Virus record (IMG/VR): IMGVR_UViG_3300006056_000001
Location: 1 to 64,000 of that record
Reading direction: 5' to 3' (one strand)
From: a virus
Lineage: Duplodnaviria > Caudoviricetes
DNA length: 64,000 nucleotides
Each line of letters opens with the position of its first letter. The stretch's first letter is position 1. The translations under genes were made by a program, and so were the position numbers. Shown here one piece after another: positions 1 through 53,273 of this stretch. The notes beneath the pieces were generated by a model. That model ran no database searches. It was given only the letters and a program-made list of their open reading frames with translations, and was not told the origin of the DNA.

Positions 1-479
1 GCAGGAACACTACTTATAATGGCGCCCTTGTCTATAAAATCTTGATTAATAAAATCATCGCCTGCTACTATTACATCTCCTCTAGTAAAGTTACTTAAAA
101 TATTTAAGTCCAATACCATAGAAGCTAATGCATCTGCTCTCTTCTTTATTTCTTCAATAGCTACTTGAGAGTAGTTAAATGCTTTGTTGTTTGCTTTAGA
201 TAGATTACTAAGCTCAATATAAAACCTATTAATATCACTAAATATCTTTTCTAAGTTACTATTATATATCTCTGAACTAGGGGTATCTCCTGTAATTAAT
301 TCTTTAGGAACAAATTTAGCTTTAGATAAAGAGTTATAAAAGTCATTAAATAAAGACAGGGCTTCTGACAAAAGTAAATTACTATCAGACGTAGTTCTAG
401 AAGATAATTGACTTAAAGCGTCTTTTAGCTTTATGATACTTGATTGACTTTCTGATATTAGCTGTACAGTATTAGACAT
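1..479 (-). CDS. Virion structural protein, truncated by the window edge; N-terminus paralogous to 479..3268
   Basis: Not in the ORF track. The ATG at 479 overlaps the upstream TAA (TAATG) and the frame stays open to the edge: MSNTVQLISESQSSIIKLKDALSQLSSRTTSDSNLLLSEALSLFNDFYNSLSKAKFVPKELITGDTPSSEIYNSNLEKIFSDINRFY... Confidence 0.8.
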   Translation of the reverse strand, partial: MSNTVQLISESQSSIIKLKDALSQLSSRTTSDSNLLLSEALSLFNDFYNSLSKAKFVPKELITGDTPSSEIYNSNLEKIFSDINRFYIELSNLSKANNKAFNYSQVAIEEIKKRADALASMVLDLNILSNFTRGDVIVAGDDFINQDFIDKGAIISSVP

Positions 480-33249: not shown

Positions 33250-33759
33250 TTATTCTCTCAGTGTTTTGTTTCTTTGTATACTGTTGTTTGTAGTAAGAAT
33301 ATAGTTTCCTTCTACAGCTTGGTTTACATCTAAGCTATCAATTATTATATCATATACGGTAGGATCTGGCCCGGCTTCTTCATTATTTGGTATATGTCCA
33401 GATACAGTAACTATTATTACCGACTGTTTTATTACAGAAGTTATCTGTTCTTCTTGATTACTTATATTTCTTACGACTTCTATTTCATCTTCAGAAATTT
33501 TACTACTATCTTCTGGAGTTTGAAGCCTACTTTGTTTAGCTGAATTTACTAACTGTCTGTATTTATTAACAGGTATAACTGCTACTTTTCTAGAAATAGG
33601 GTCTAGTCCTGTCTTATTAATAAAGATACCGCTTGGGATAACTCCTTTTTGATATAAGAAATCTAGTAAAGGTCCATAGATTATTTTACATACTATTCCT
33701 TTACCAAACCTTCTAGAGTCTATTTTTGACTCTAACCTTAATTTTTTATTTAAACTCAT
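33250..33759 (-). CDS. Hypothetical baseplate-region protein (169 aa)
   Basis: ATGA-coupled to the hub gene; no motif recognised. Confidence 0.45.
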   Translation of the reverse strand: MSLNKKLRLESKIDSRRFGKGIVCKIIYGPLLDFLYQKGVIPSGIFINKTGLDPISRKVAVIPVNKYRQLVNSAKQSRLQTPEDSSKISEDEIEVVRNISNQEEQITSVIKQSVIIVTVSGHIPNNEEAGPDPTVYDIIIDSLDVNQAVEGNYILTTNNSIQRNKTLRE

Positions 33760-36700
33760 TCGTTACCCCAGAAATCATCTAATATTTTTCTAGCTCCTTC
33801 TTGTAATTTTCTGCTAGAGTAGTATGCACCAAAAGCAGATAGTCCCCAGATAGAGTCCTCAGATTCAAGACCGGCTATGAAAGGAGTACCATTAAATATT
33901 AATGGAGAAAGAATAACAGGTAATTGATCTACGTCATTACTACTTTCTATAAAGGCAGGTATGACTGTAGATTTATAAGACATGTGCGTACCCCACTGTG
34001 CTCCTGCAATTAAAGCTTGATTTACAAAATAAGACTTAGCAGGGCCTCCTATTGTCTTTACAATACTTGTAACTAGCTGCATTGGATTTTTAGAGGCAGT
34101 AATCATTTCAGGTATCTTATTCTTTAATGTATCTTTTGCTACATTTTTATATATGTTCCAAGTTTCATTTATACCTCCTTTTATTCCTCCTTTACCAAAT
34201 CTAGTTAGTAATCCCTTTAAGCCTTGTTTTACAGAAAATTGACCTAGAGCTAAAGGAGCAGCGCCACCTACCGTGGATACTATTAAAGCTAAAGTCAATG
34301 CGTCGCTTACAGCATCAATGGTATTATATACAAACTGATAAGTAGTCTCCATGATAGCAGTATGTAAAATGCCTGCTCCTGGATTTGCATCACACACAGC
34401 TTGAGGAATTATGTTAGTAATCCATCCTTGATCTGAGTTCCAATGGTGTACTAAGCTTTCAACTTCTATTGGCCCGGACATCTTAGTATAGGCGTCTGAT
34501 ATAATAATTCTATCATATGGTTTCATATTCTTACCTATTAAGGTAAGCGTACCTCTATACATTTTCTTAACACCTTCTGCTAAGTGGTGGCATGCTAGCT
34601 TAGCTGCTAGATCAGGATTCTGACAATTAAGCTCTGTAAAGACTTGTATCTTTTTATTTGATAGAGTTAATCCAGGATGAAACTGTAGTCCTATAACTCC
34701 AGTAACCTCATTTCTAGGATAATAAACCCATTCAATACCAGCACCAATTCTACCTTCTCTATAGACCTGTTCTTCAGACTCTACTTGGGATTCTGCTGAA
34801 CCAGGCTTAGGATGTTCTATTACTACTGTATTCCACATTTCTCTTGTAGTAGCTACAATACTATTTTTTATAATACTATGGTCGCTGTCTACAAAGTGAT
34901 GCATTCTAAACACTTTCATATTAGGAGCAAGCTGTTTAGAATTATCTAGTGACTTAACCTTCTTTGAAGCTTCTGTATCATTTAACAAATATTGACTAAA
35001 GAAATAAACAAACCCTTTAAACAAGATTAATGTATCATCTATGCTTTCGTTGTTTATTCTATAAGACACATAATTATTCTTGTCTACTTCTTTAAGTTTA
35101 TTAATAACAAGATCCCACACATATGTAAATATTTTTCTTACATCTTTTTGATTGCGGTTATACTCTTTATATTTCCTTAAGCTTGTTGCATGCTCTGGTA
35201 TTAATTTGATTAATTCATCTAGTATATAATCTAATCTGCTTGGTCTTCTTACGTTGGTTGCATATTCTAGCTTTATATAATCTTTAATAGCTTCTAATTC
35301 TGCTCTCTTAGAAGCATTACTTTTTAGACTACTAAGTCTATTAATTAATTCTAGATTTTTTACTGTAACATCATTACTTAATATTTGATCTACATCTTGT
35401 ACAACACTAGGCCAAAATTGATATATCTTGGAATCTTCTATTCCAAAAAACACACCCGCCAGATTAACAGAAATATTTGAATCTCCTATTGAAGATTTTA
35501 CTCTATCTAAATACACAGCAGGAATACTAGAAGATAATAACTTCTTATATATGTTCTCTGTTAGTATTGATTTACCAAAAACAGAGTCTAATAGTTTTTT
35601 AGAGTCTTGTATATAATTTCTTAATTCTTCATAGGACATGAAAGAATAGAAGTCATTAAATGTTGTTTTTACAAAGTTAGCAATCTCTTCTTCTATTTTA
35701 TTACTACCTGGGGTAGGTGTAAAATTAATAAGTAGTTCTAGATTAGAAGGTCCATAAGACTTGTAAAAAGAAGTACTTTCAAAAGATTTAAGCAAAGAGC
35801 CTATTATTTCTTTTGTGTTGGCTAATTTTTGCTTTTGATTGTCTTTGTATTTTTTATTAGTATATGCGTTTCCTCTTGTATAGAAATAAGGCTGGTCAGG
35901 ATGTCCCATGAAGATGGTAGCTTCTCCATCATAAGGAACTACATCTACAATACAATTCCAAGCATGCCTGCTAGCCTCTTTTAAAACGTCCCAGGCTGGC
36001 TGTAGAGGTACTATCCAACTGTCGTTATGCCATGCAGGCATGACACCAAAGACGCTTCTTAAGCCAAATGGGTTGCTATAAAGAGCAGTATCAGGATACC
36101 ATATATTTTTTAATCTGGTGTCAAATCCTTTATCATCTTTGTCTATGCTTCTTCGTCCAATAGATCTAGCTAACCAATTATTTGCATCTCCTAGTAAAGA
36201 TCTTTCCCCTACGTTTTCTAAGTCTATATTTTGATTGTTTTCTATAGATCTATTAAGTACTTCATCTACCGCTTCTGGATTAAGATTCTTTAGGATATAG
36301 GCGGCGTCATGTTCAGGAAAGAACTCTCCAAAGCCTTCTGGATTAGCATATGTTATAGCTTGAATAGCTAAATCTCTAGCTCCCCAGTTCTTTGGATCGT
36401 CACAGTTAAAGCTTACTTGTCTATTAATTAATTCTGCTTTCCATCCTTGAGCTACAATAGTCAGCTCATCACCAGGAACAATTTCTGTGATTCTTCCCGT
36501 AAAAGTAATAGGAAGATTGTAAGCCATAGAAGAGTAGCCCATCCTTATTTGAATAGCTCTTCCTTGTATAAGCTTATATCTCTTTATATAACTGTCTTTA
36601 TCTGGTCCTCTTAGACTACCTAATACTCTTGTTTCATTTTCTGTTTTGTAAGTGTTTTTGTTTTCAAAGTAAGAGCTTTGTAAATGGTAAAGAGGATCTG

Positions 36701-39700
36701 CTAGTTTTATAACAGCTAATGGAGCATCTTCTTTGTCCATTGTAATGTCTATAGAAAGGATAGAAGATACTGAAAAGATAGAGTCATCTGCAATTAAATC
36801 GTTACCACGCTTGTCAATTAAATATACTTTGACAGCAGGGAACATTCTTTCTGGTCCATAGATGTCATCAGTTATTTGATCTATAGCTGAAGTAATACAC
36901 TTTTGTGTAGAGCTGTCTAAGTGACGATGAAATTCTATTTCTTTGTCTATAGGTGTTTTAAATACAGAGTCTGCATCTAGTCTTGGTAATATATCTGTTG
37001 TAAGTAATTTTGCTTTGCTTATTACTCTATATATCTCTCCACCTAATCCTGGAACAGTTACTTCTCTAGGTATAGAATAGTTTCCTTGGTGGTGTAGATA
37101 AAGCTTAATATTATCTTTACCTCCATAATACTTATCTTCAAACTTACTGGCCAACTTTACATAGTCTTCTCTAAATCCAGAAGGATTGCTTTTACTAAAT
37201 TTCTCTAAAGAATTAGTAATCAATTCAGAAAGAGTACTATCAGCTATTTGATAGCTTTTACTACCAGGAACAGACGTTTTCTTTTCTCTTATAAGTCTTT
37301 TTATGTCTTCTATTTCTTCTGTGTTGAAAGGAATAGACAAAGACATCTGTTCACTTACTTTGTTTGTGCTTTCTACAGATTCTTTTGCTATTTTTCTTAG
37401 TTGATCTTTTGTTCTTGTTTTATAAAACCATGCGGCTGGAGAAACAAGGTCTTCTCTATTTACACAAGGTTTACTTCTGTCTTCTACATATTCTAAACCT
37501 AAATCATCAAAAGAAGGAGCAAACTGTTCCCACTGATCTTCAAATAACTGATAGTAAGTAGGAAGAAGCAGATCAGGATAGAGACCTTGTATGTCTTTAC
37601 TAAAATTAGAGATTTCTTTTCTGTATTCTTGTTCCACGGGTTGCTTCTCTAAACTATATTTTGTTATCAGTTTATAGAAGGCTGTGTAGATTCCGTCTGT
37701 AGAGTATATGTAAGGAAGCTGTATGTCCTTTGGTTTTCTTTCTATAATTACATTAAAAAGTGCATCTTTAAAAGAATTTGAAAACCTAATATTGGATTTA
37801 GATAGTTTATCAAAAATTATACTTGTATAAGTATTACCTATTAGTCCAGAAGTTCTATTTCCTAAATAAGAGCCAGTAATATACTGTGCCATTTCTACAT
37901 AGAATTTTTCTGAATCAGATCCTGTGTACTCAAAACAGTTTTTCACTATATTTAATATTGCATTATATATGTCAAAATACTGTTCTTCTTTTCCAGATAC
38001 ACCACTTATTATACTGAATAAGATAGGTAGATTTTTTAATTGATCTGTAATGTTTATCTTTCTATTAGCTACATACTTGCCTACTGCTAAAGGCTCTTTT
38101 AATAGAGCTTCTTTTATACTATTAGTTGAATCTACTTTTCTATGTATTAGAGCTGCTCGTAGAGTATCTGCATTTAATATACCAAACTTAGAGTCTTTCT
38201 TTATATCAGTTAAGCTTTTTTCTACAGGCCAGAAAGCAATGTAGGCTTGATACAACTCATCATTATTCATAACAGAATCAAGAAGAGCTGACGTACCTCC
38301 TTTAGCACGGAACTGTATTTCTTTATCTGTAATATTGTCATAAAACTTACGTAATTCCTTTAACTCAGTTCCACCTGATATTAAAGTCATTTCAGAAGTT
38401 TCAGCTATTCTTATATTATTTTCTAAGAAGTCTACTTTAACATTTATTACATTTGGTAGATCTGTAGTTTCACTATCAATACTAAGAGGAACAAATATAG
38501 TTTCTCCCGGAGCAACAAGGGGCTTCTTATATGTCGTTGAATATAAAAGCTTTGTTACAGGGCTTTTAATGTTCCATCCATATATTCTATCGAACCTCTC
38601 TAAACTTTTATTTATAACATCAGATGTTTCTTTGAATTTACAGAAGTTTAAGAACTCTCTATTACTAGATTGATTATTAAATACAATGTCAAAAGACAGG
38701 CTCTTTCCTGACACACCCATGTGTGTTGCAAAAGAGTAGATCTTTCCTTGTAGTTTATTAAATGCAAACTTGTGGGCAAAAGAGCAACTTTCTGATAGAA
38801 GTATTCCTTGACTTTGTTTGTTGGTTGTTATATCCAACGTAACTTGTTCTTGTGGGCCGGCTATAGGGTTCCCTACTGTGTCTTTTCCATACCAACTAAT
38901 AGTTGTCTTTTGAAAGTCTTCTTCAGAAAGGAATGGAACTTGAGAGTTATCTAAAACCTGATTAATCCATTTAGTAAGCCAATGTGCTCCTCTTGGATAT
39001 TCTACAGGCTCTCCATTTTCTCCTAAGTAAAATAGACCTTCAGATTCTGATATAGGACTTATATCTATTCTAGATATAGTAAGAGTTGCTTGTAAAGTAT
39101 TAACTAGATCTGGAACATTTTCTATGTCTATTCGTTCTAAGGCAACAGGTACATAATTACTATAGTATTTGTTTTGTTTTAAATCTTGTGGACTTAAAGG
39201 TTCTACCATAGAACCAAAACTATAAGGCAGGGTAGAATCATTAAATCCTTTTAAAACAGGAGCTACATTGTTACTAGACAGGTTTTTATTAAGATTTTGA
39301 ATTAAGTATTCATTGTATGTAGCAAAAGAGTTGTCTAGTAAACTAGTTACAGTTGTGCCTCCTACTGTAGCTGCTTGTACAGCCTTATTTAATTTACTGT
39401 TATCTGCAATAAGTTGCTTTACTTTTTCATAGTTTTCTTTATCATTTAGGACATCTTGGTTTTTCCATGCAGAAGTCAAAAATTCATTCTCTAAAGAAAC
39501 TATAGGACAGCTTTTAAACAAAGCTATTAGTGCTCTTAAGCCACTTTGTCCATCGGAATTAACTCCTGCATTTATCTCTTCTAGCCCTGTGAAGATAAAT
39601 CTTATTTGAGCCCTATGTAAAGAATCTCCAGAGTCTACTACAAAGAAGTTGCTAGACCTAGTAGTCTCTAAAATTTTGACACCCTTTCTTTCTTGAAGTG

Positions 39701-39770
39701 CTATTTTTTGAACAGCATGTGTATACTTTAAGGGGCCTATGTAAAGCTCAGAGCTATTTCTTAAGTTCAT
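33756..39770 (-). CDS. Giant baseplate hub protein (gp27/gpD/VgrG-N-like), 2004 aa
   Basis: GRAIQIRMGYSS...PITFTGRITEIVPGDELTIVAQG and MYRGTLTLIGKNMKPYDRIII...GPIEVESLVHHWNSDQGWITNI match the two hub beta-barrels. Position between tape measure and gp25 fits. Confidence 0.72.
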   Translation of the reverse strand: MNLRNSSELYIGPLKYTHAVQKIALQERKGVKILETTRSSNFFVVDSGDSLHRAQIRFIFTGLEEINAGVNSDGQSGLRALIALFKSCPIVSLENEFLTSAWKNQDVLNDKENYEKVKQLIADNSKLNKAVQAATVGGTTVTSLLDNSFATYNEYLIQNLNKNLSSNNVAPVLKGFNDSTLPYSFGSMVEPLSPQDLKQNKYYSNYVPVALERIDIENVPDLVNTLQATLTISRIDISPISESEGLFYLGENGEPVEYPRGAHWLTKWINQVLDNSQVPFLSEEDFQKTTISWYGKDTVGNPIAGPQEQVTLDITTNKQSQGILLSESCSFAHKFAFNKLQGKIYSFATHMGVSGKSLSFDIVFNNQSSNREFLNFCKFKETSDVINKSLERFDRIYGWNIKSPVTKLLYSTTYKKPLVAPGETIFVPLSIDSETTDLPNVINVKVDFLENNIRIAETSEMTLISGGTELKELRKFYDNITDKEIQFRAKGGTSALLDSVMNNDELYQAYIAFWPVEKSLTDIKKDSKFGILNADTLRAALIHRKVDSTNSIKEALLKEPLAVGKYVANRKINITDQLKNLPILFSIISGVSGKEEQYFDIYNAILNIVKNCFEYTGSDSEKFYVEMAQYITGSYLGNRTSGLIGNTYTSIIFDKLSKSNIRFSNSFKDALFNVIIERKPKDIQLPYIYSTDGIYTAFYKLITKYSLEKQPVEQEYRKEISNFSKDIQGLYPDLLLPTYYQLFEDQWEQFAPSFDDLGLEYVEDRSKPCVNREDLVSPAAWFYKTRTKDQLRKIAKESVESTNKVSEQMSLSIPFNTEEIEDIKRLIREKKTSVPGSKSYQIADSTLSELITNSLEKFSKSNPSGFREDYVKLASKFEDKYYGGKDNIKLYLHHQGNYSIPREVTVPGLGGEIYRVISKAKLLTTDILPRLDADSVFKTPIDKEIEFHRHLDSSTQKCITSAIDQITDDIYGPERMFPAVKVYLIDKRGNDLIADDSIFSVSSILSIDITMDKEDAPLAVIKLADPLYHLQSSYFENKNTYKTENETRVLGSLRGPDKDSYIKRYKLIQGRAIQIRMGYSSMAYNLPITFTGRITEIVPGDELTIVAQGWKAELINRQVSFNCDDPKNWGARDLAIQAITYANPEGFGEFFPEHDAAYILKNLNPEAVDEVLNRSIENNQNIDLENVGERSLLGDANNWLARSIGRRSIDKDDKGFDTRLKNIWYPDTALYSNPFGLRSVFGVMPAWHNDSWIVPLQPAWDVLKEASRHAWNCIVDVVPYDGEATIFMGHPDQPYFYTRGNAYTNKKYKDNQKQKLANTKEIIGSLLKSFESTSFYKSYGPSNLELLINFTPTPGSNKIEEEIANFVKTTFNDFYSFMSYEELRNYIQDSKKLLDSVFGKSILTENIYKKLLSSSIPAVYLDRVKSSIGDSNISVNLAGVFFGIEDSKIYQFWPSVVQDVDQILSNDVTVKNLELINRLSSLKSNASKRAELEAIKDYIKLEYATNVRRPSRLDYILDELIKLIPEHATSLRKYKEYNRNQKDVRKIFTYVWDLVINKLKEVDKNNYVSYRINNESIDDTLILFKGFVYFFSQYLLNDTEASKKVKSLDNSKQLAPNMKVFRMHHFVDSDHSIIKNSIVATTREMWNTVVIEHPKPGSAESQVESEEQVYREGRIGAGIEWVYYPRNEVTGVIGLQFHPGLTLSNKKIQVFTELNCQNPDLAAKLACHHLAEGVKKMYRGTLTLIGKNMKPYDRIIISDAYTKMSGPIEVESLVHHWNSDQGWITNIIPQAVCDANPGAGILHTAIMETTYQFVYNTIDAVSDALTLALIVSTVGGAAPLALGQFSVKQGLKGLLTRFGKGGIKGGINETWNIYKNVAKDTLKNKIPEMITASKNPMQLVTSIVKTIGGPAKSYFVNQALIAGAQWGTHMSYKSTVIPAFIESSNDVDQLPVILSPLIFNGTPFIAGLESEDSIWGLSAFGAYYSSRKLQEGARKILDDFWGNE

Positions 39771-42700: not shown

Positions 42701-42835
42701 TATAGCAAAATCTACTCTGTCTATGTCACCTAAAGCAATAGGGTGATATGCTTCTACAAGAACATTGTAGAACTCTGAAGAAGAAGTCCTTCTAATTCCT
42801 GTTTGACTTATAACGCTACAAATTGGTAGTGGCAT
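39767..42835 (-). CDS. Beta-helix (pectate-lyase-like) putative depolymerase with C-terminal 20-aa repeats (1022 aa)
   Basis: TIYWDWNGGSDSNSGLTTSLPVKSFEKAAQ is the typical N-cap of PL9/DUF1565-type beta-helices; PHSDIFQF and NFIISNF/NILIRDS strands follow. Confidence 0.6.
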   Translation of the reverse strand: MPLPICSVISQTGIRRTSSSEFYNVLVEAYHPIALGDIDRVDFAISSNGGGSSTTSVTSRAMWYPNDSEYDDPLPGSWGGGPSPIWCFGIKIEMASYAAGYIDVIPTVYGGSGESVTLSTVRIYNDKDGTDRRPSPKTIYWDWNGGSDSNSGLTTSLPVKSFEKAAQLASTSNDCGGATIYVNAAGSHKVTGTNFGQNQELYTSGHHWLTVLPKAGLSRDDVKLISLASNEDLSNNWMYFKGTDSPGLRQARVRFSDITIVNPGFKVGPWSYGEMHIWIDHCISAPPAPFDQAVLGTGLHIRSIETVAGSVDIPNKKDMIDRIFVSGSIRRCTFGGGQWGDIVRGCWIDKFAGQVFQPQYRNSALVNILVTDIYQEVGVSGRFEAQGSFRIENIGTSRYRIQANAGYAGQDFVPALAYLSGSPVLGIRLENFTTSTNNNMAVGFLSGGYSGSLPWVDVITTGSANNLTPESDASATVTNGNLRVGNTTTNYNTWGPHSDIFQFIQTESYPVQNFIISNFAVFPAWETQGIFGSTSNMSGIAFVNYYDGGINDGPRSFYYASSSNITKNILIRDSYISRLEVSSTDLIENSEILDSVFGLLSASEGTMSSYTGQVNTQYNHFTGSLLIGGHASSGRYFSSTTPALSTDATVSATSTAYGTASTFWDRPTPWYENSKGPWLNVSLADWSFTETTGGGTSGNVIYTGAVSTSTSVIPSHTIRVRKDVNEIYSSSVIPPATYKERISVSSSTSNSVIPSISKNIQIALGQLSCSSVLPPSTVVIKPTIGVLYSTSVLPPITTYFSQVEFSTLVSNSILPASTYKVTISKNALENSSIIPAISLSTKTSVSSPDVNVLTVSSAGSNGNTTSVYILFGLDQVHVQSITAADVTVSTVIPIIVNINSFSLSISGSDVGVTYFNNPAPEVPDLDFNEGDKSFPPNQFFFSNEEEPEIEEDETVRIMKQLANINQDLVSLPSLDKQFWSQNIIENIRNVQFSKNVINLMTSNYKDLNKIKKDIASKTLKNK
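40310..40730 (-). repeat. Seven tandem ~20-aa protein repeats ending S-(V/I)-(I/L)-P
   Basis: TSTSVIP, YSSSVIP, TSNSVIP, SCSSVLP, YSTSVLP, VSNSILP, ENSSIIP with Pro-to-Pro spacing of 20, 20, 20, 20, 21 and 20 aa. Confidence 0.9.
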
Positions 42836-45800
42836 TAGTATGTATAATCACTGTTAGATATTTCCCTCATTTGTCTTTCAAGTAAATAAGGGTTATTTGA
42901 TGCAGATCTTTCTCTTATGGTAATATTAGAACTACCCGAGTTAGAAATTCTATAAGGACCAACAGAAGAAGGAGATAGATTTTCTCTTCTTCTAGATGCT
43001 GTAAAACTTTGATTAGTACCATAAACTTTAGCCGGCCTAGATGGGTATATAGGATCTGGAGCCAAATCTTCTGGCTGTCGGACATCTATATCTCTAGGCA
43101 TAGAAGGACCTGACATAAGAGAGACTAGTGCTCCTCCCATGACCGCTCCTGCTCCTAAGCCTGCTAAAAATTTATTGTTTGTTGCAAACTTCTTAGCTGC
43201 TAAATATTTTGATCCAGTCTTAGCTGCTTGTTTCTTTTCTTCATGTTCTAGAATAGTTTCAGCAAATTTGTTTTGTGCTATAGATTCTGGAGCACCTATT
43301 ACACCTCTCATTAGTCCTAGAAGCTCTTCGTCTTCTGTTCCTTCTTTTATAGTCTTTTGTAAAACACTTCTTATTGTACTAGGTTGTTTAGTAACAGAAG
43401 CACTAAGTACAGCTCCAACACCTACATAGGATCCTAGGAGTCTTGCAGTCTTTGAAATAACATTTGCTTCTGCTCTAGCCAGCTCTTCTTTAGAAGCTCT
43501 GGTTAGATCTCCTAGTAAAAGATCTGTAGTTTGTTTATCTAACATGCCTTTATTGGCCATCCAATCTAAGGCCATAAAAGCTCTTCCTTTTTCATTCTTT
43601 AAGAAGTCTTCAAACAGAGCAGATGCTTCTGTCTCTACTGTTTCTAAATCAAAAGAAGTTCTTCTATACTTTTGTCCAAGATTTATAAGTCCTTCGCCTA
43701 ATCCAGTTAGGCCCGCTTTTGTATGTCCCTTCTGAACTGCACCTTGGTACATGCTTTGCATTAACTGCTGTATTACAGATACTTTTTCTGGATCATTAAA
43801 TTTACTAACTATATTATCTATAATAGATGAAGGAATGCCTCTATCTAAAACACCCATTTTCTTGGCGCCTTCGGCACCATAAGCAGTTATGTTAGCCATG
43901 ATCTCATCAGAAGATCTTACCATACTGTATCCTAAAGATTTAGGCACACCAATAAAATCTTCTATATAATCTACTGCTTTAACAAAAGGTTTGGTAACTA
44001 AGTGGTTTACTAATTTTGACAATCTTCCTGCAGAAGTAGCAGAACTTGCTACTTCTAACTGTCTATTATAATACTTAACGAATGGACTAATTTTGCTAGT
44101 TTGTCTTGCAAATCTATCTTCTAAAGCTGTAGGATCTGCAAGCCCTTCCATAGAGATTAAGTTTACTACGTCACGGTCTATATCTCTTTCTACAGATCTA
44201 TGAAACAGTGGGTTTAACGTAATATTTAATTGACCAAAGAAAGAAGGAACACCAGATTTCTTGATGTGTATTTTTTGTAACATCATGTGTTCTGCTCTTT
44301 GAGCAGGATCCACACCTACTACTCCATAGAAATACCCTCGTTTCTTTACAGCATCTAATGTAGCTTTTCTATTTTCTGTGTTAGCAGGCCCTGATTTTCT
44401 TAGATACCAGTCTTTAAATCCTTCTTCACTTATATAAGAAGTATAAAATTTCTTAGGATCTAGTAAGTCTGACTTATTAAAGCCGCCTAATGTATCTGGT
44501 GAAATTCTTGCTCTAGTTCCAAATTTAATATGTAAGGTATTTGTTTTAGCAAAGATACCATCTCTTCCAGCTAAAGATTTTACAATACTACTATATTGTA
44601 AAGGACTAGATGAATCAAAACTTCTACCAGATTCTAGTTCTATTAATGACTTTAAGAACTCATGTCCGGTGTGTGACTTACCTACTGTGGTGTATCCGTG
44701 TGCTCCAGGAGTAGCTCTTAAGTACTGTAAGGGTATAGGTAAATATCTCATTTGTCTTTCTTCACCTAATACACTAATTTTTCTGGCGCTTCCTAAATCT
44801 AAGTAAGCCAGATCAGTATTTAATCCAAGAGCCGTATCTTTAAGTAAGTCTTTGTGTACTCCGCCTGTAGAATGAGCAAAAGCAGATATAGAAGGAAGTC
44901 TAGCTAATGGACTACCATTCAACTCTAGCCCACCCTTACCTAAGGTTAATATAGTAGATGAAGCATCTAAGCCAGGTGTTCCTAACAAAGCAGAGGCAAA
45001 TCTATGTAATGTGTGGTTTCTAGAGAGTGTTAATTGGTTAGATCCTTGTCTAATTCTTATTAAACCTTTTGACCAAACATCATGTTTAGAAGTTAATCCG
45101 GCAAACACAGGATCATCATATGAAGAAGAATAGCCAAGTAGTCTAGATGAATTAGCAAGAATTTGCATCTTAGATAGAGTCATTCTTACTCCTTTCATCA
45201 TATTTATATCACCCATGAAGTCCGATCTACGTCCTCCACGCATACCAAATATTTTGATTCCTTTGACTCCTTGTATTGGCAATGAGGCTTCTTCTCCATA
45301 TTCTACTCTGTTAGCAAGTAACTTTAAGGATAGATTATCACTTTTCTTCCATTCATTAAGCTTAGCAGTTGCTTGTAGGAATGCAGTGTTTGCATCTGTT
45401 ATTTCTGGAACATATGTTGATTTAGATCTTTGTACTTTTTCAACAAGATTGTTTCCAAAAGTATCTCTAAGTAATGCTTCTCCTTGAGGGTGTTGTCTTA
45501 ACTGATGTATGAAGTTTGTAGTTAGTACGTCTTGCCCGTGGGTCTTAGCAAACTCATCTGCTGCAATAACGTAGTCTACGCCTAGTCTAGATGCTAGATC
45601 TTTTAAATGACTTCTTCCTATTCTACCACCTGTAAATCTTCTTCCACCTACAACTGTTTCTATAGTCTCAGGTATGACTTTTTGTCCAGACAAGAAGCTT
45701 AATTCTATCTTATCTGGTGTCATTCTTATTTGATTTAATGTAGCTTGATTATTTGCTATTTGTAGTAGCAATCCTCTATTGTATCCTTTAGGTCCTAGTA

Positions 45801-47193
45801 TTTTTCTTATCAGTTTTTGTCTATCTGTTAAATCTCCACCAGATAGTGCTGCTCTAACATCTGCCTTTGTAAAGGCACTTGATGCATCTACTAATTGATC
45901 TCCTTTTGCAAGGTTCACTCCAAACAATTCTTCTATTGCAGATGTAACAGATGTATTAGGAGAAGAGATTTTCATCGTTCCTACGGGTGCTCGGAAAGCC
46001 AGTTTATTGGCTCCAGAAGCAGTCATGTAGGCGCCACCTTCTCCAAAGAGTAATCTAGAGTACTGTTCGTTTTCTAAGTCTACTACAGCTACTCTTAACA
46101 TCTGTTCATCAGCCATCTTAGACAACTGATGCAATCCTTTCTTAGCTGTGTGTTCTTCTATTAAAGTACCATATTTAGTAGCATATTCTTTTCCTGCTAC
46201 TAAGAACTTTTTCTTATTACCTAGGAAATCAGCCTTCCCATAGATGTAAGACTCGTCTAAACCTAAATGTTTTAAAAAGGTAGGTAAGGACTGGCTGAAA
46301 TACTCTTTTCTATATTGCTGTATAAGCTCTAGAGCTTCTGGTGTGTTAAGATCTTTATTTCTAGAAACTCTCTTAAGATCATTATACACAGATCTTCCAA
46401 CTGTCTTAGACATCATAGAGAATGCAGAGGTTGCTATTCTATATTTTGACAGTTTATCTGCGAACAGAAGGCCTTCGTCTGAATAACCTACAACCGCATT
46501 TAGGCTAGAGGCATATCCTTGTTCAAAAGGACTTTGTAGTCCTCTAGATGTTGTGCCTGATAGTGTTATAGAGCCTAATCTTAGATTATTAATATTAGGC
46601 ATGTCTTTAACAGACAGGCGGTAGTCTCTTATCTTATTTAAGGCTCCAGAAAGAGCTAAATGAGGATAGTCTCCTCGATAAGAATCTATAGACTGTGCTA
46701 TTAATTTTTCTGCACTAGAGTAATAAGTACTTAAATAACTTTTCCTTTCAAAAGAAGATTCTCCAGCATAGCCTACTAAAAGACTATTTACTTTTCTACT
46801 TCTGCCTCCTATATCAATTCCACCAAATGTATTAGCTGTTGGAAGGAACGCGGACCTTCCACTTGAGTATAAAAACAGAGCATTAGTCTTTTCGTTAAAA
46901 CCAACTTGCCCACCTACAGACTTTATTCTTTCAAATACATTTCTTGCTTCTTCTGGTACTAATCCTGACTTATGTAGTTTTTCAAACATAAAGTCAATAT
47001 TTTTACCAAAAGCTAGCTGACTTCCTTCTTCTAAATTATATGTATCTCCTTTTCTTAAGACATCCCTGTAAGAGCTAGTCTTACCCGCGCTTAGGATCTC
47101 TATAGCGGAAGCTTTCTCTTTAAACGTACTAGGCGGTCTTCCTAAGCCTAAAACATCTGTAATTGTTCTGTAGATAGGGTTATCTTGTGACAT
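42835..47193 (-). CDS. Putative single-chain two-barrel (DPBB) RNA polymerase-like virion protein (1452 aa)
   Basis: Beta-like motifs MLRVAVV...FGEGGAYMT (aa 365-391) and ETVVGGRRFT...GVDYVI (aa 512-543). Beta'-like motifs SLAGRDG...FGTRARISPD (aa 873-900) and ITLNPLFHRSVERDIDRD (aa 991-1008). Gly-rich hydrophobic C-terminal helix. Confidence 0.65.
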   Translation of the reverse strand: MSQDNPIYRTITDVLGLGRPPSTFKEKASAIEILSAGKTSSYRDVLRKGDTYNLEEGSQLAFGKNIDFMFEKLHKSGLVPEEARNVFERIKSVGGQVGFNEKTNALFLYSSGRSAFLPTANTFGGIDIGGRSRKVNSLLVGYAGESSFERKSYLSTYYSSAEKLIAQSIDSYRGDYPHLALSGALNKIRDYRLSVKDMPNINNLRLGSITLSGTTSRGLQSPFEQGYASSLNAVVGYSDEGLLFADKLSKYRIATSAFSMMSKTVGRSVYNDLKRVSRNKDLNTPEALELIQQYRKEYFSQSLPTFLKHLGLDESYIYGKADFLGNKKKFLVAGKEYATKYGTLIEEHTAKKGLHQLSKMADEQMLRVAVVDLENEQYSRLLFGEGGAYMTASGANKLAFRAPVGTMKISSPNTSVTSAIEELFGVNLAKGDQLVDASSAFTKADVRAALSGGDLTDRQKLIRKILGPKGYNRGLLLQIANNQATLNQIRMTPDKIELSFLSGQKVIPETIETVVGGRRFTGGRIGRSHLKDLASRLGVDYVIAADEFAKTHGQDVLTTNFIHQLRQHPQGEALLRDTFGNNLVEKVQRSKSTYVPEITDANTAFLQATAKLNEWKKSDNLSLKLLANRVEYGEEASLPIQGVKGIKIFGMRGGRRSDFMGDINMMKGVRMTLSKMQILANSSRLLGYSSSYDDPVFAGLTSKHDVWSKGLIRIRQGSNQLTLSRNHTLHRFASALLGTPGLDASSTILTLGKGGLELNGSPLARLPSISAFAHSTGGVHKDLLKDTALGLNTDLAYLDLGSARKISVLGEERQMRYLPIPLQYLRATPGAHGYTTVGKSHTGHEFLKSLIELESGRSFDSSSPLQYSSIVKSLAGRDGIFAKTNTLHIKFGTRARISPDTLGGFNKSDLLDPKKFYTSYISEEGFKDWYLRKSGPANTENRKATLDAVKKRGYFYGVVGVDPAQRAEHMMLQKIHIKKSGVPSFFGQLNITLNPLFHRSVERDIDRDVVNLISMEGLADPTALEDRFARQTSKISPFVKYYNRQLEVASSATSAGRLSKLVNHLVTKPFVKAVDYIEDFIGVPKSLGYSMVRSSDEIMANITAYGAEGAKKMGVLDRGIPSSIIDNIVSKFNDPEKVSVIQQLMQSMYQGAVQKGHTKAGLTGLGEGLINLGQKYRRTSFDLETVETEASALFEDFLKNEKGRAFMALDWMANKGMLDKQTTDLLLGDLTRASKEELARAEANVISKTARLLGSYVGVGAVLSASVTKQPSTIRSVLQKTIKEGTEDEELLGLMRGVIGAPESIAQNKFAETILEHEEKKQAAKTGSKYLAAKKFATNNKFLAGLGAGAVMGGALVSLMSGPSMPRDIDVRQPEDLAPDPIYPSRPAKVYGTNQSFTASRRRENLSPSSVGPYRISNSGSSNITIRERSASNNPYLLERQMREISNSDYTY

Positions 47194-50100
47194 TATCTTA
47201 GCCTGTCTTTAATTTCTCTAGTCTTGTCTAAAGTATATTCGCCTTCTAAGTATCTATTAGATCTATTAGGTGTAGAGAATCTTTTTATCTTAAAATTACC
47301 TTTAGATACTTTATAGTTTTGTTCCATGATAAAAGAGTCAAAATTTGAATACAAAGGAGACTGAACAAAGTTTATTTGTTGATTACCAAACTCTTTTAAT
47401 CTAGTTTTTAAATCTACTTCATGAGATTCATAGAAACCATATCTATGTATGTTATCAGAAACACCATTTATACCATGTTCTATAAATCTTAATCTAGTTG
47501 CTGCATTAGATATTTCAGGAGTCCATCCTAACCAAGAACTATCAGGAATCTGATTTTGATTGATAAAATCAAGTGCTATTTGGTCAGATTGATCTCTATC
47601 ATTAAAGTTACCTGCCCATGTTTGAGTTAATCCTCTAGTCATGAACTCAGGTAAACCTCTTAGTATTTGCGCTCGAATCTCTGGGTCTTCTTGAGACACA
47701 AAGTAGTCAAAATACTTACGGTCTGCAGATCTAGGTAGTGAAGCTCTATATCCTATAGTATTTTTTGCTCCAACCATTGTTCTATCTGCAAACTGTGGTC
47801 CTCCTCCTGCTTCTTGTATCATTCTGCCTTTTATATACCCTATGGTATCCATATACTCTATAGCATCATTTTCTTGACGTATATGATAAGGAAGAGAGTC
47901 TTCTCCTCCCATACCTACCATTCTTGCAGTGCTAAGGCCTGCTCCTAGGACAGCTCCTCCTTTAATAGCTCCTATGTTCACCATAGCGCCTCCAGTAGGG
48001 CCTACAATCGACTTAATAGGAGTGAACCACCTCATGGGTCCAGATAATAAGAACCCGAATGTAGCGCCTTTACCGGCTGCTGTAAGTGGGTCTTCTAAAG
48101 CAGTATCATAAAGGGCCGGTCGAATAACGTCTTCCCAAGGAGTATTCCAGGAAGCATATTCTGATCCTTCTACGTACATTTTTCTATACTGTTCGTATGG
48201 ACTTCTAAATGGAAAAAATTTACTACCTAAGTAAGGAATTTCTGCTAGGACATCATGTGTCAAGAAATCATATGCTTTTCTTACAGGAGCATAAATACTT
48301 TTTGCAATAGTATTCATGTTTAAAGCTATTAGGTCTTCTTCGTACCTTTTATATCTTGTGTCAACTCCAATAACTTCACTTCTATTCTCTATAGCTCTAT
48401 CTACTTTTTCTTTCCATTCATCTTCTAGCCCCATATTTAATACTATCTTTTCATATTTTTTATATGCCGCACTATAAGGAGCTACATCAGATAGTATCAA
48501 AAATTTATCAACATCGCTATAGACACCTGATCTTCCAGAGTGTAGTTTATTTAAGGCCTCGTATCCAACACCTGGTAATCTTGCTTCTCCATCCGCTATC
48601 TTAATAAATGGATCTCCCATATGGAAGTCAACAAAATAATCTCTATCTCTACCTCCTGTAGAATTAGATCCAGGAAGCCAACCAGGCATATTATTAAGTA
48701 TTGGATTGACCATTGCAGATCTTCTATACTCAGCACTATAATCAGAAAGCATATATCTTCTGATAAGCTCTGTTTGTCCAAACATTCCGTTTATAGCAGA
48801 GTCATATAGTAATCTACCGGGATCTTTCATTATGGCGCTTGTGGCATACTGTGTACCTATATCAGGACCAAAAGTAACACCAAAGAAGCTCATTGCAAAT
48901 TTATAAATACCTAGTGGCTCAGTAGCAATATTTGCTTGCTTAGCCATTGTATTTAAAAGACTCATTGGATCTTCTGCTTCGTAGGATGTAGCTGCCATAG
49001 CAGGCATACCGTACAACCTAGCTGTATTGGCAGTTAATCCTCTTTGTGCTAATCCTGCTTCTAGTAAAGGAAGTCTATCCGGCTCTCTATATCTAGTAGG
49101 CTTCATTAATTGACCAACTGTTGCACTTAATATTGGGCCAAATTCAGGGAACCTACTTAGATCAGATTCTGTGCTAATATAAGGTCTATCATTATAGTGT
49201 CTTTCTTCTAGCCTATATGGGTTGAGTATATTAAGTACTCCAAACAAGTTAGAAGGAGTAGGGAAAGGTATTCCAAAGACGTTCGCATGATAAGACCAAT
49301 ATTCTGACTTATCTCCATACATAGATTTTGTTCTATAATCAGAAGTCAGTTTATTATACCAACTAGATTCATATCTATCTGGTTTACCTCCAAAGAAAGG
49401 AAGGTAGCCTAATCCCCAAAGTCTACCTTTTCTGACAGGTACTTTTCTATCTCCACTATACTCTTCCATCAATTCTGATGGACTTTGGCCAGGATCTGGA
49501 CCTCCGATTGCTGCATATGTTCCTGCGCCAGCTAGTAATCCTTTTAAGAAACCTCCTCTTTTAAATACAGCATTTGCTGCAGCTATTGGAGCCCCAAGGC
49601 TTCTTAACACATAAGAACCATCTGAGTTAACAGATCCCGGGAAATAAGTGTCTAGGAAATTGCTAGCTGCGCCTATACCTGTTATTTGACGTGCATATTG
49701 TTGTGCAACTCTAGCTCCTGCATACAAAGAAGCAACTGCTTTTATAGGAGAGATTCCTGTGAACTTCTCTGTTAAATAATCTGCATATAAACCTGCTTGT
49801 TTAGCTGTTTCATATGCAACAGGTACTAAAGAAGACCGAATTAAGTTTTTTACAAAGCTATGATCTGGCTTCATTCCTATGCCTAATAAAGACTCTGACA
49901 TAAGACTATTCAAGCGATATAGTCCATACGTACTAACATCTCTTATACCATTCGCTGCCCTCTTTAATCTACTTCCGCCTTCTATGTCATAATAAGCATA
50001 TCTATTAGACACAGTAGGGAATCCTACTGCTGTTAGGTCTCCTTTGTCTATATCCGACATTAAGTTAACCATACTATTAGTCGTAATAGTTTTACCTGTG

Positions 50101-51560
50101 ACTTCATAACTTCCTTTCTTTACAGGTATGACTAAGTCTTGAGAAATTAAAGCTCCTCTTATATTTCTAGAATATTCCTGATAACTTCTTTTCTTGACTA
50201 TACTAACATCATCTACTATGTCAAATAGTACTCCTACTCTATTTGGGATTAACTTTGTAGAACCAGAAAGGTCTTGGAGTCTTGTTACTCTTCCTCCTCC
50301 CGGTACTTTAATATATCCTCCGCCTACTTTAGCTAGTTCTGGTAAGTCTCCTCCTAGAACGCTATCTAATACTTTAGATACAGCAAAATTATGCTTATAT
50401 GGATTATGCATAATAATACCTGTACCTTCTCTAAGAGACTTCAATCTCTTATAAGGGTTAATAGCAAGCTTTTCTATTAAAGTAGGTCTAGTAGAGAATG
50501 CAGGACCTATGCCTAAATTCTGCTCCATCCACCCTATTATTTTACCAAAAAATCCAGTTCTATTTGGTAAAGATATTTCTAATCTTCCTTGTCTAGATGC
50601 ATCTATTACTTCAAAAGGATTTCCGGTCTTTCTTAAAGACCTTTGTGTTCCTAGTAATGTTTCTTTATATTTTCCTGTAGAGGGGTTAAGACTATATCCA
50701 TAAACATTGCCTCCAATAAATACTCTGCTTCCGTTATAATTGTCTCCTGGTCCTAAGACTGCAATATTTCTAGGAGATCTAAATAAAGAACCAAGAACTT
50801 GGCCTTGACCAAACATATCAAATCTAGCAGATCTTTGATAAATAGTTTTTCCATTAATTTCTATAGGGGATACTGTACTTAATATGTTTCTAAGTCTGAC
50901 ATCTAGTACTTCTTTTCTTCCTTGATGTAAGAATATTTTAGAATCTAATATTTGATTAGATTGAACTAATCCAAGCTTATGTGCTTTTTCTACAATTCCA
51001 TATTGCTCTCCCCCTAATACACGAGACCAGTTCTTTTGATCAGAAAGAACGTCTCCAAAGGTAACCCTTTGTAAGGACTGAGGGAAGAAGCCGGTGTTGT
51101 TTCCATAATTAGCTAAAGCTCTATTTGTATACTCTACAGTCCTTTTTCCAATAGCGTCTGATATAGTCTGTCTATTATTTGATGCATTAAGGCCCATCAA
51201 CTCAATAGAGTTTCTTAAGTCATCTATAATATCTATAGGACCAAGATTGACTTGTTTCTTGTTAAAGTCATAATTAAAATCTAATAAAGATCTTAGTCCT
51301 GTAGTATTACCTTTTATAGCAGACTTTCCTGTATTAGCTGCTACATCTCCTTCTAAGTTTATTCCTTTTACCATTCCTAAGAAGTTAAATAGATTGTCAC
51401 TTAAACGTCCCCCATGGGCCAATCTACTTCTTAGTAATAACGCTCCAAGACCAATAGTACCTATACCTGCAACGAGAGGATTAATCCAATTGCGATTCTG
51501 TTGAATTGCATTAGTTCTTTCTACCTCTTTTTGCTGATTAATATAGTTACTATTATCCAT
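47193..51560 (-). CDS. Tape-measure-like protein (1455 aa)
   Basis: Follows the tube and chaperone genes; helical and Ala/Gly-rich, with several Gly-rich hydrophobic segments (LVAGIGTIGLGALLL, GLLAGAGTYAAIGG, GGAVLGAGLSTA). Confidence 0.65.
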   Translation of the reverse strand: MDNSNYINQQKEVERTNAIQQNRNWINPLVAGIGTIGLGALLLRSRLAHGGRLSDNLFNFLGMVKGINLEGDVAANTGKSAIKGNTTGLRSLLDFNYDFNKKQVNLGPIDIIDDLRNSIELMGLNASNNRQTISDAIGKRTVEYTNRALANYGNNTGFFPQSLQRVTFGDVLSDQKNWSRVLGGEQYGIVEKAHKLGLVQSNQILDSKIFLHQGRKEVLDVRLRNILSTVSPIEINGKTIYQRSARFDMFGQGQVLGSLFRSPRNIAVLGPGDNYNGSRVFIGGNVYGYSLNPSTGKYKETLLGTQRSLRKTGNPFEVIDASRQGRLEISLPNRTGFFGKIIGWMEQNLGIGPAFSTRPTLIEKLAINPYKRLKSLREGTGIIMHNPYKHNFAVSKVLDSVLGGDLPELAKVGGGYIKVPGGGRVTRLQDLSGSTKLIPNRVGVLFDIVDDVSIVKKRSYQEYSRNIRGALISQDLVIPVKKGSYEVTGKTITTNSMVNLMSDIDKGDLTAVGFPTVSNRYAYYDIEGGSRLKRAANGIRDVSTYGLYRLNSLMSESLLGIGMKPDHSFVKNLIRSSLVPVAYETAKQAGLYADYLTEKFTGISPIKAVASLYAGARVAQQYARQITGIGAASNFLDTYFPGSVNSDGSYVLRSLGAPIAAANAVFKRGGFLKGLLAGAGTYAAIGGPDPGQSPSELMEEYSGDRKVPVRKGRLWGLGYLPFFGGKPDRYESSWYNKLTSDYRTKSMYGDKSEYWSYHANVFGIPFPTPSNLFGVLNILNPYRLEERHYNDRPYISTESDLSRFPEFGPILSATVGQLMKPTRYREPDRLPLLEAGLAQRGLTANTARLYGMPAMAATSYEAEDPMSLLNTMAKQANIATEPLGIYKFAMSFFGVTFGPDIGTQYATSAIMKDPGRLLYDSAINGMFGQTELIRRYMLSDYSAEYRRSAMVNPILNNMPGWLPGSNSTGGRDRDYFVDFHMGDPFIKIADGEARLPGVGYEALNKLHSGRSGVYSDVDKFLILSDVAPYSAAYKKYEKIVLNMGLEDEWKEKVDRAIENRSEVIGVDTRYKRYEEDLIALNMNTIAKSIYAPVRKAYDFLTHDVLAEIPYLGSKFFPFRSPYEQYRKMYVEGSEYASWNTPWEDVIRPALYDTALEDPLTAAGKGATFGFLLSGPMRWFTPIKSIVGPTGGAMVNIGAIKGGAVLGAGLSTARMVGMGGEDSLPYHIRQENDAIEYMDTIGYIKGRMIQEAGGGPQFADRTMVGAKNTIGYRASLPRSADRKYFDYFVSQEDPEIRAQILRGLPEFMTRGLTQTWAGNFNDRDQSDQIALDFINQNQIPDSSWLGWTPEISNAATRLRFIEHGINGVSDNIHRYGFYESHEVDLKTRLKEFGNQQINFVQSPLYSNFDSFIMEQNYKVSKGNFKIKRFSTPNRSNRYLEGEYTLDKTREIKDRLR

Positions 51561-52579: not shown

Positions 52580-53273
52580 ATGTTACTAATTTGATTATTT
52601 TTTTAGAAGAAATAAAGCTATAAACCTCATAAAGAGGATCTGAGCTTCCTTCTGCTCCTGCTTGGGATATAGATTGACTAAGTTCATTAAAATGAACATT
52701 TTCAAATCTAATAAACCATGTTTGATAAGCAGGATCTTGATAATATACGTCCATTATAGTATTTTCTTTAAGTAGTACTATAGGGCTATCTATACTATCT
52801 ATTCTAGAACCTAGTTGAGCAGGCGTAAATAGATTTTCTAATGCTTTTTTAGTAGCCTCTTTTGTATCTTTTTTTGATATCAAGCTGGCTATATATTCTG
52901 CTCTGGCTGCTCTTTCTTCTGGTGTTCCATTAGGAGGCAGCTCAGTGCTTAATTCTTTTTGTACATTATTTGTTAAAATATTATCTTGTTTTCTATCGTA
53001 AGAATAATTATACAGTCTAGGAATAAAAGTATTTTGTTTTTCGTAAGATTCGTCCAAAACTGTGTTAAGATATCCTGGAAAGGTAAAGTTTAAAGTTAAT
53101 AATCCTTGTACTATTACTCTTCCATAAGCTACTTTAGAAAAGAAAGGATCATTATATCCATATATAGGCACTTTTGATGCCCCTTCTTTGAACTGTAGTT
53201 GATATGCTTGGTCAATATGTATTCCATTAAGGAATACTGCAACAGTACTAGATGTTGGATATAAATGTGTCAT
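52569..53273 (-). CDS. Tail tube-like paralogue 3 (234 aa), possible tube initiator
   Basis: LQFKEGASKVPIYGYNDPFFSKVAYGRVIVQGLLTLNF aligns with the N-terminal motif of the two upstream tube genes. Confidence 0.7.
   Translation of the reverse strand: MTHLYPTSSTVAVFLNGIHIDQAYQLQFKEGASKVPIYGYNDPFFSKVAYGRVIVQGLLTLNFTFPGYLNTVLDESYEKQNTFIPRLYNYSYDRKQDNILTNNVQKELSTELPPNGTPEERAARAEYIASLISKKDTKEATKKALENLFTPAQLGSRIDSIDSPIVLLKENTIMDVYYQDPAYQTWFIRFENVHFNELSQSISQAGAEGSSDPLYEVYSFISSKKIIKLVTYEP

Follow-up and report, generated by a model that had tools for sequence, protein, structure and literature searches.

RNA polymerases (RNAPs) built on two double-psi beta-barrels (DPBBs) and carried in the virion have been described, in the literature that we searched, for crAss-like podoviruses, for P23-45-type siphoviruses and for the myoviruses phiKZ and AR9, in which the enzyme is multisubunit. 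The phiKZ and AR9 virion RNAPs are packaged in the head. The gp96 enzyme of Thermus phage P23-45, which forms the N-terminal part of a 5002 amino acid (aa) tape measure, enters with or through the tail and transcribes the pre-early genes (PMC10770324). Here we describe a gene, P0001, from the tail module of the virus record IMGVR_UViG_3300006056_000001. The window that was analysed is the first 64 kb of this record, which is a complete sequence of 189,716 bp with terminal repeats, and a look-up of sequencing runs showed that the stretch is contained in wastewater and sludge samples, rows with a small share of it being left aside as evidence. The open reading frame (ORF) list and its translation place P0001 on the minus strand at 42835-47193, with an ATG start and a length of 1452 aa; the position and the length are those given in a preliminary description of this DNA. 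Taken together, the evidence is best explained by a single-subunit two-barrel RNAP that is encoded in the tail module and delivered with the virion to make the first transcripts, a reading that we favor with moderate confidence.

P0001 and P23-45 gp96 are alike in that a single-chain two-barrel RNAP is found at the position of the tape measure, and the same role is proposed for P0001. The differences are considerable. P23-45 has the tail of a siphovirus, whereas the tail of the phage encoding P0001 is contractile; gp96 is fused to the tape measure, whereas P0001 is a separate gene with its own C-terminal hydrophobic helix; and the Asp motif is DFDGD in P23-45 gp96 and gp64 but RDxDRD in P0001, with no detectable sequence similarity between them. 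P23-45 also has a non-virion paralogue (gp64, or gp62 in P74-26), whereas no second paralogue of P0001 was found in the 189.7-kb genome. The crAss-like phage enzyme phi14:2 gp66 is likewise a virion-packaged single-chain two-barrel RNAP that is encoded beside tail genes and transcribes the early genes; for P0001 we infer the packaging. It differs in belonging to a podovirus, in its length (2180 aa) and in its DFDxD motif; it has no sequence similarity to P0001, and its structure is far less similar than those of QDE-1 or gp96. In phiKZ and AR9 two-barrel RNAPs are carried in myovirus virions for early transcription, but these have four or five subunits, are visible to Pfam and are close to bacterial beta and beta', whereas P0001 is one chain, is invisible to Pfam and belongs to the tail module. 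Finally, relatives of the YonO type match PF05183, which P0001 does not, and their genes lie outside a tail-module context. What the preliminary description had said of SPbeta YonO, phi14:2 gp66 and the tape-measure-fused RNAP of P23-45 agrees with the literature. Compared with these systems P0001 is new in its sequence family, in the type of tail, in being unfused and in having its own hydrophobic anchor.

The evidence for a polymerase fold comes from a structure predicted with AlphaFold 2 (AF2). The model spans aa 340-1270, was built from 57 sequences without templates, and is numbered so that the model number equals the protein number minus 339. It has a predicted local distance difference test score (pLDDT) of 87.6 and a predicted template modeling score (pTM) of 0.86, the five models ranging in pLDDT from 82.9 to 87.6; a first run with 8 sequences had given a pLDDT of 56, which was too poor for use. 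The modeled part is a globular alpha/beta enzyme containing two double-psi barrels, one beta-like and one beta'-like, in the right order for a single-chain two-barrel RNAP, as the preliminary description had proposed. The parts of the gene are as follows, in window coordinates.

42835..47193, minus strand: P0001, single-chain two-barrel RNA-polymerase-like protein (family of about 54 clusters, AF2 pLDDT 87.6, fold searches)
46177..47193, minus strand: N-terminal region, aa 1-339, outside the modeled part and without a family match
45214..46176, minus strand: beta-like barrel module (DPBB-B with an insertion), aa 340-660, from alignments with Beta/Rpb2-type chains
45637..45642, minus strand: R518-R519 basic pair of the beta-like barrel, R519 invariant
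44527..45213, minus strand: connector or clamp-like region between the barrels, aa 661-889, from the secondary structure of the model
44104..44526, minus strand: beta'-like barrel (DPBB-A), aa 890-1030, to which stand-alone double-psi barrels align; R896, P963 and the Asp triad invariant
44170..44184, minus strand: candidate metal-binding DxDxD triad, D1004, D1006 and D1008, invariant in 49 sequences
43858..43935, minus strand: bridge-helix-like long helix, aa 1087-1112 (model helices 748-773), a putative assignment from order and conservation
43669..43776, minus strand: trigger-loop-like helix-loop-helix, aa 1140-1175 (about 1135-1175), with invariant Q1150 and K1155, likewise a putative assignment
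43114..43170, minus strand: Gly-rich hydrophobic helix, candidate membrane anchor, aa 1342-1360, Kyte-Doolittle mean 1.82 over 19 residues
42838..43113, minus strand: conserved Pro-rich C-terminal tail ending S-D-(Y/F), aa 1361-1452, from the alignment

Four fold searches with this model returned only RNAPs. With Foldseek all 50 of the top 50 matches in the Protein Data Bank (PDB) were RNAP beta' chains, the best being the AR9 non-virion RNAP (nvRNAP; E 1.2e-4), followed by bacterial enzymes and the phiKZ nvRNAP. VIA-align, which is independent of Foldseek and was run exhaustively over 48,161 PDB representatives, gave two-barrel RNAPs for each of its 18 top matches. Neurospora QDE-1 ranked first (Z 13.3, 346 residues at 4.3 Å, model 2..922, both barrels); taken together the QDE-1 alignments have Z 13.0-13.4 and cover 331-359 residues of the two barrels, the bridge helix and the trigger loop. 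Plant RDR2 has Z 10-12, the exhaustive search giving 10.0. QDE-1 and RDR2, the best structural matches, resemble P0001 in being single chains, and an Arg is found in the first barrel (R738 in QDE-1). P74-26 gp62 (8f5m_A) and Pol I A190 both have Z 10.2 and P23-45 gp96 (8h2m_A) has Z 10.0 over model 1..860, while the vaccinia, Pol II/III, African swine fever virus, archaeal, AR9 and phiKZ enzymes rank lower; phi14:2 gp66 is aligned over 397 residues with Z 6.3, and archaeal PolD has Z 5.3. The nearest models in the ESM Atlas are fused Rpb2_6+Rpb1_2 phage RNAPs (TM 0.44-0.48), and the top match in BFVD carries the annotation "minor tail protein".

The two halves of the model match two different subunits. 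Chains of the Beta/Rpb2 type are aligned with model 1..320 (4c2m_B Z 7.9, 6j9e_C Z 7.5, 8qma_A Z 8.5) and those of the beta'/Rpb1 type with model 384..931, which is aa 723-1270 and reaches the end of the model, while stand-alone double-psi barrels (VAT-N, CDC48-N and a designed DPBB) align to model 552..690 and the single chains of QDE-1, gp96, gp62 and gp66 align across both barrels. The model thus gives good support to barrels arranged as in QDE-1 and in P23-45 gp96/gp64. The Asp triad of the model sits, as it does in beta', in the loop that joins a short helix to a strand. On the same model we infer the identity of the bridge helix and the trigger loop, and that the conserved residues of the first barrel lie close to the triad. 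P0001 is almost certainly a homologue of two-barrel polymerases.

The second line of evidence is conservation. Seven close homologues of P0001 share 29-96% identity, and a profile search recovered about 54 representatives of clusters at 50% identity, all of them metagenomic. The search set no limit on length and gave family members of 390 to 1966 aa, so none is fused to a giant tape measure. A full-length alignment of 49 sequences (17-72% identity, mean column identity 20%) contains only 14 invariant columns: K352, G353, R519, G633, R656, D662, R896, P963, R1003, D1004, D1006, D1008, Q1150 and K1155. The residues of interest in the beta-like module are K352, E384, R518/R519, R656 and D662, of which the conserved K352, E384 and R518/R519 belong to the first barrel or immediately precede it. 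The three Asp residues, whose loss in homologues had been named beforehand as a point of refutation, are unchanged in 49-57 sequences, down to 17% identity.

All five RNAP motifs of the preliminary description are present where it had placed them, including those at aa 991-1008 (44170-44223) and aa 873-900 (44494-44577). In the first motif every row shown has an acidic residue, E or D, at position 384, where the most distant members read FEDS or FEDA. In the second R519 is invariant and R518 is mostly Arg, while in the third R896 is invariant and G879 nearly so. In the fourth all three Asp are invariant, and DPxQRxEH occurs about 35 residues upstream of them, giving a family signature of DPxQRxEH, some 35 residues, and then hNPh....ERDxDRD. 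Presumably this parallels the beta' pattern NRAPTLH ... NADFDGD, which we take as a lead. In the fifth Q1150 and K1155 are invariant and G1088, Y1089 and R1093 nearly so. Since the five motifs are also where conservation peaks in this family of about 54 clusters, they are not the product of chance. Conservation also extends beyond the modeled part. Residues N5, P6 and I7 at the start of the protein are invariant among the close homologues, P6 being nearly invariant in the 49 sequences, in which P1366, P1374, D1376, P1379, S1448 and D1449 of the C-terminal tail are also nearly invariant; the hydrophobic helix at aa 1342-1360 is conserved across the family.

No sequence method connected P0001 to a polymerase family. 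Pfam and PHROGs gave no family for P0001, and phmmer and three different family profiles returned only noise from the PDB sequences. The RNAP models of Pfam matched none of the 49 family members when their C-terminal halves were searched. For PF05183, the YonO/RdRP family, P0001 had no match at E<=0.1 and the C-terminal halves of the 49 members had none; the YonO-like gp99 of Bacillus phage 0305phi8-36 scored 1.2e-18 as a positive control. An hhalign comparison of the P0001 family with gp99 aligned the DxDxD stretch alone and was not significant (E 0.12). Relatives were also sought by tblastn against 50,697 phage records, with none found; by a word-indexed search that used the 49-sequence profile and gave nothing beyond the seven close homologues; and by a scan of IMG/VR, which gave one. 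No relative of P0001 turned up when bacterial and archaeal genomes were scanned, so there is no clue to a prophage or a host.

All the large ORFs in the window share the minus strand and form a single structural block, while the terminase, portal and major head protein are encoded outside the window. The block runs in the order sheath, two tube-type proteins, three chaperone-sized ORFs, ORFs of 1455, 1452, 1022 and 2004 aa, and baseplate-sized genes. The features that matter for the position of P0001 are these.

54790-56457, minus strand: tail sheath, from PHROG matches
54093-54779 and 53273-54031, minus strand: two tube-type proteins, from PHROG matches
47193..51560, minus strand: upstream ORF of 1455 aa, gp145-like, candidate tape measure, from tblastn, blastp, hydropathy and the junction with P0001
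39767..42835, minus strand: downstream ORF of 1022 aa, Ser/Thr-rich, without a family match
33756..39770, minus strand: baseplate-hub-like protein of 2004 aa with a lysin-like segment and a hydrophobic helix near the C-terminus, from a phrog_20474 match and hydropathy

That the tail is contractile, as previously stated, is supported by the sheath matches and by a Baseplate_J protein among the baseplate genes of a syntenic relative. The terminase is closest to those of Moorella phage MTATph1, Bacillus phage 0305phi8-36 and its relatives, and Acinetobacter phage ME3, and the sheath-tube order is also found in ME3, 0305phi8-36 and MTATph1. Upstream of P0001, the 1455-aa ORF is homologous to 0305phi8-36 gp145, which is a virion protein verified by mass spectrometry, and to ME3_35 and MTATph1 CDS0026; it carries an N-terminal hydrophobic helix and is the positional candidate for the tape measure of the phage. 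A language-model search with this protein was uninformative. Downstream, the 2004-aa ORF is weakly homologous to MTATph1 CDS0032 (by tblastn) and to 0305phi8-36 gp147 and ME3_37 (by blastp), the last two both being annotated as hub. Because the flanking ORFs match gp145 and hub proteins, the position of P0001 is a slot bounded by the gp145-like protein and the hub. Its stop and start codons are tied to those of its neighbors by two TAATG junctions: the stop of the 1455-aa ORF shares one base with the start of P0001, and the stop of P0001 shares one base with the start of the 1022-aa ORF. Of the coupling to the tape measure that had been proposed, the overlap with the upstream ORF stands, while that ORF, a gp145 homologue, is a candidate tape measure.

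The gene order is kept in relatives at 29% and about 17% identity, which have a sheath, tubes, small ORFs, an ORF of about 1414-1448 aa, a P0001 homologue, an ORF of about 2000-2300 aa and baseplate genes. At the position of the 1022-aa ORF the 29%-identity relative has a 190-aa ORF and the most distant relative has nothing, so this ORF is lineage-specific and the gp145-hub slot therefore takes extra cargo. Other phages fill the slot differently. In 0305phi8-36 it is occupied by gp146, annotated as a "hypothetical tape measure" and lacking DxDxD, in MTATph1 by an unrelated protein of 1309 aa, and in ME3 by ME3_36, of 1603 aa; the family profile found nothing in the records of 0305phi8-36 and MTATph1. 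MTATph1 CDS0027 and 0305phi8-36 gp145 were rejected as P0001 homologues, the hhalign comparisons being negative and both proteins lacking DxDxD. Pfam and PHROGs identified no polymerase family in the three large neighbors of P0001, and a comparison of P0001 with its 1455-aa neighbor as possible paralogues was negative. The earlier impression that P0001 looks like a second tape measure did not hold, its modeled part being the globular enzyme described above; P0001 is also the second, not the first, gene after the chaperone-sized ORFs, and we rejected it as the tape measure. Its N- and C-terminal parts and its hydrophobic helix could nonetheless interact with the tape measure or extend it.

Two proteins of cultured or named phages resemble P0001 in fold. 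ME3_36 (vB_AbaM_ME3, 24173-28984 of the stretch analyzed), identified by its length as the BFVD entry A0A172Q021_2, matches the model with E 1e-7 over 783 columns. Its slot is that of P0001, since ME3_35, which is gp145-like, precedes it and the hub ME3_37 comes next, and it has a single DxDxD (GGDHDQDQ) with an EPAQ motif about 45 residues upstream. By eye it has a short hydrophobic stretch near the C-terminus, and it carries an additional N-terminal hydrophobic helix that P0001 does not have. Since hhalign and hmmsearch comparisons with the family profile were negative, the link to ME3_36 is one of fold, motif and position. ME3_36, which is annotated as a hypothetical protein, is probably a two-barrel RNAP. 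Our literature search found no paper that links ME3 to a two-barrel RNAP, and a comparison of 224 jumbo phages reported two-barrel RNAPs in its group 1 and in a pair of phages from group 3 only, ME3 (group 2.2) not being among them. The second protein is ORF65L of Microcystis phage MaMV-DC (225-5258 of the stretch analyzed, minus strand), a hypothetical protein of 1677 aa, with E 2.2e-5 in BFVD. Its signature, QRTPMG followed by NPLL....EGDADGDQ, is very canonical, and the gene is not part of the tail module, being separated by about 33 kb from that of the sheath. ORF65 is likely to be an unannotated single-chain RNAP in cyanophages of the Ma-LMM01 type.

The pattern of invariant residues makes it quite likely that P0001 is catalytically active. 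The Asp triad would bind catalytic Mg2+ ions, and the enzyme would copy DNA into RNA. P0001 would be made late, alongside the tail proteins, and built into the virion, because its gene lies between those of a gp145-like virion protein and the hub with one-base overlaps. It would sit in or beside the tail lumen with the tape-measure/hub complex and enter the cell at infection, where the hydrophobic helix near its C-terminus may serve as a tether to the membrane entry channel; tethering at the entry channel has likewise been proposed for the fused P23-45 enzyme. There it would transcribe the first phage genes before any phage protein synthesis, after which transcription would pass to the host polymerase and a phage sigma-like factor. 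A 205-aa ORF at 155685-156302 of the record, with a weak match to sigma-70 region 2 at 155847-156044 (E 0.003, under the Pfam cut-off), may encode a phage sigma factor with which the host RNAP would transcribe middle or late genes. Packaging and injection are suggested by the conserved gene order, the junctions with both neighbors, the C-terminal helix and the finding of no other RNAP gene in the genome, with the virion RNAPs of phi14:2 and P23-45 as precedents. P0001 is thus probably virion-borne and used for early transcription, whereas a location within the tail lumen is more doubtful.

Several points weigh against this reading. Gene position proves neither packaging nor placement in the tail. 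To pass through a myovirus tail tube, a protein of about 160 kDa would have to be unfolded or in an extended form, and the model is globular. The fold also does not reveal the template, since QDE-1, the best structural match to the model, uses both DNA and RNA. No early promoter emerged when 63 intergenic regions were searched with mismatch-tolerant 12-mers, which returned only AT-rich words and tRNA T-loops, and the sequences upstream of the plus-strand genes yielded no conserved non-sigma-70 promoter motif. Lastly, the basic residues of the first barrel are Arg or other residues instead of the two classical Lys. In QDE-1 one of these two lysines is also replaced, with Arg R738 contacting the product, and a fourth Asp, D709, in the first barrel helps to bind metal B (PMC9508822). 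The Arg pair and the conserved acidic residue of P0001 fit this QDE-1 variant, and the substitution is therefore no argument for a dead enzyme.

The most serious alternative is that P0001 is an active two-barrel polymerase that is not injected. It could serve late or very late transcription, make primer or regulatory RNA, or, as a product of the preceding cycle, help to draw DNA in from the membrane side, its place among the tail genes being a historical accident. The fold and the invariant active site say nothing of location, the fold relative in MaMV-DC is encoded away from the tail genes, and 0305phi8-36 gp99, a YonO-like RNAP recognized by the Pfam RdRP model, lies in the early region without a virion note. 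We nevertheless regard such a polymerase as unlikely: the slot between homologues of two virion proteins is kept down to 17% identity and also in ME3, and the gene overlaps both of its neighbors by one base. A polymerase made only with the late structural genes would moreover have little to transcribe unless it were carried to the next cell, and the hydrophobic helix and conserved termini resemble those of ejected tail proteins.

If P0001 were instead a structural or ejection protein of the tail, derived from a polymerase but making no RNA, its barrels would act as a scaffold or DNA clamp. Its slot is indeed that of the "hypothetical tape measure" gp146 in 0305phi8-36, its hydrophobic helix is like those of its giant neighbors, and the classical lysines of the beta barrel have not been kept. 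Yet the three Asp, the Arg that precedes them and the trigger-loop-like Gln and Lys are among the 14 invariant columns, a pattern typical of a working active site; the change from Lys to Arg has a precedent in active QDE-1; and the modeled part is globular, with no extended helix. A protein without catalytic function is thus quite improbable.

A similarly small chance attaches to a two-barrel enzyme with another chemistry or template, either RNA-dependent like QDE-1 and the RDR enzymes or a DNA polymerase like PolD, working in counter-defence or in the priming of replication. For such an enzyme speak QDE-1 and RDR2 as the best structural matches and the appearance of PolD in the list. However, those phage relatives of QDE-1 that have been studied (YonO, gp66, gp96 and gp64) are described as DNA-dependent RNAPs, PolD scores far lower than QDE-1, and the phage encodes its own family A DNA polymerase and primase-helicase. 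That chance motifs and an over-confident structure prediction produced the result altogether, as the silence of every sequence method and the poor 8-sequence model might suggest, is very improbable given five template-free deep-alignment models that agree in their high scores, two aligners that return RNAPs over the PDB, BFVD and the ESM Atlas with the halves matching different subunits, and motifs that are the invariant positions of the family.

A broader version of the virion-delivered RNAP reading is speculative. P0001 might represent an unrecognized and widespread class of stand-alone RNAPs in the tails of the 0305phi8-36/ME3 lineage, which would be ejected before the DNA, tethered by the helix at the membrane entry channel, and would transcribe and perhaps pull in the genome; such a class would be an independent, unfused counterpart of the tape-measure-RNAP fusion of P23-45. 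The family was unseen by Pfam, PHROGs and sequence searches of the PDB, and its neighbors on the contigs, where examined, are typical of large contractile-tailed phages. Should P0001 be both active and injected, the delivery of transcription enzymes in association with the tail would have more than one origin and would extend to all three tail types, the start of infection in such phages would be explained, and the RNAP superfamily would have a further member in its most divergent branch, with a bearing on ideas about its origin. ME3, with a fold relative in the same slot that is annotated as hypothetical, offers a tractable cultured model.

The remainder of the genome was also surveyed. Rpb1_2 and Rpb2_6 had no match in the complete 189.7-kb sequence. 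The search for T7-type RNAP with PF00940 likewise gave no match, and was uninformative because the control genomes were silent as well. A 1221-aa ORF near the right end was considered as a homologue of the YonO-like 0305phi8-36 gp99, and the comparison was negative. Besides the replication proteins mentioned above, the genome encodes a class II ribonucleotide reductase. ARAGORN found about 24 tRNA genes on the plus strand at 97600-126000 of the record, with small early or middle ORFs between them; it also called a "tRNA-Pyl" at 62937-63010 of the window, inside a 965-aa ORF, a call that is probably spurious. A 529-aa protein encoded in the tRNA-rich region (record 100233-101822) has TROVE and Ro60-type vWA domains and is therefore Ro60-like. 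In two relatives of the phage, homing-endonuclease genes (HNH and LAGLIDADG; 4061-4669 of one analyzed stretch and 292-2441 of the other) are inserted among the tail tube and chaperone genes. At 133703-136896 of the record a MoxR-type AAA ATPase is encoded beside a vWA-like protein. The annotation of 0305phi8-36 has this pair too (gp63/gp66), in support of kinship with that group of phages.

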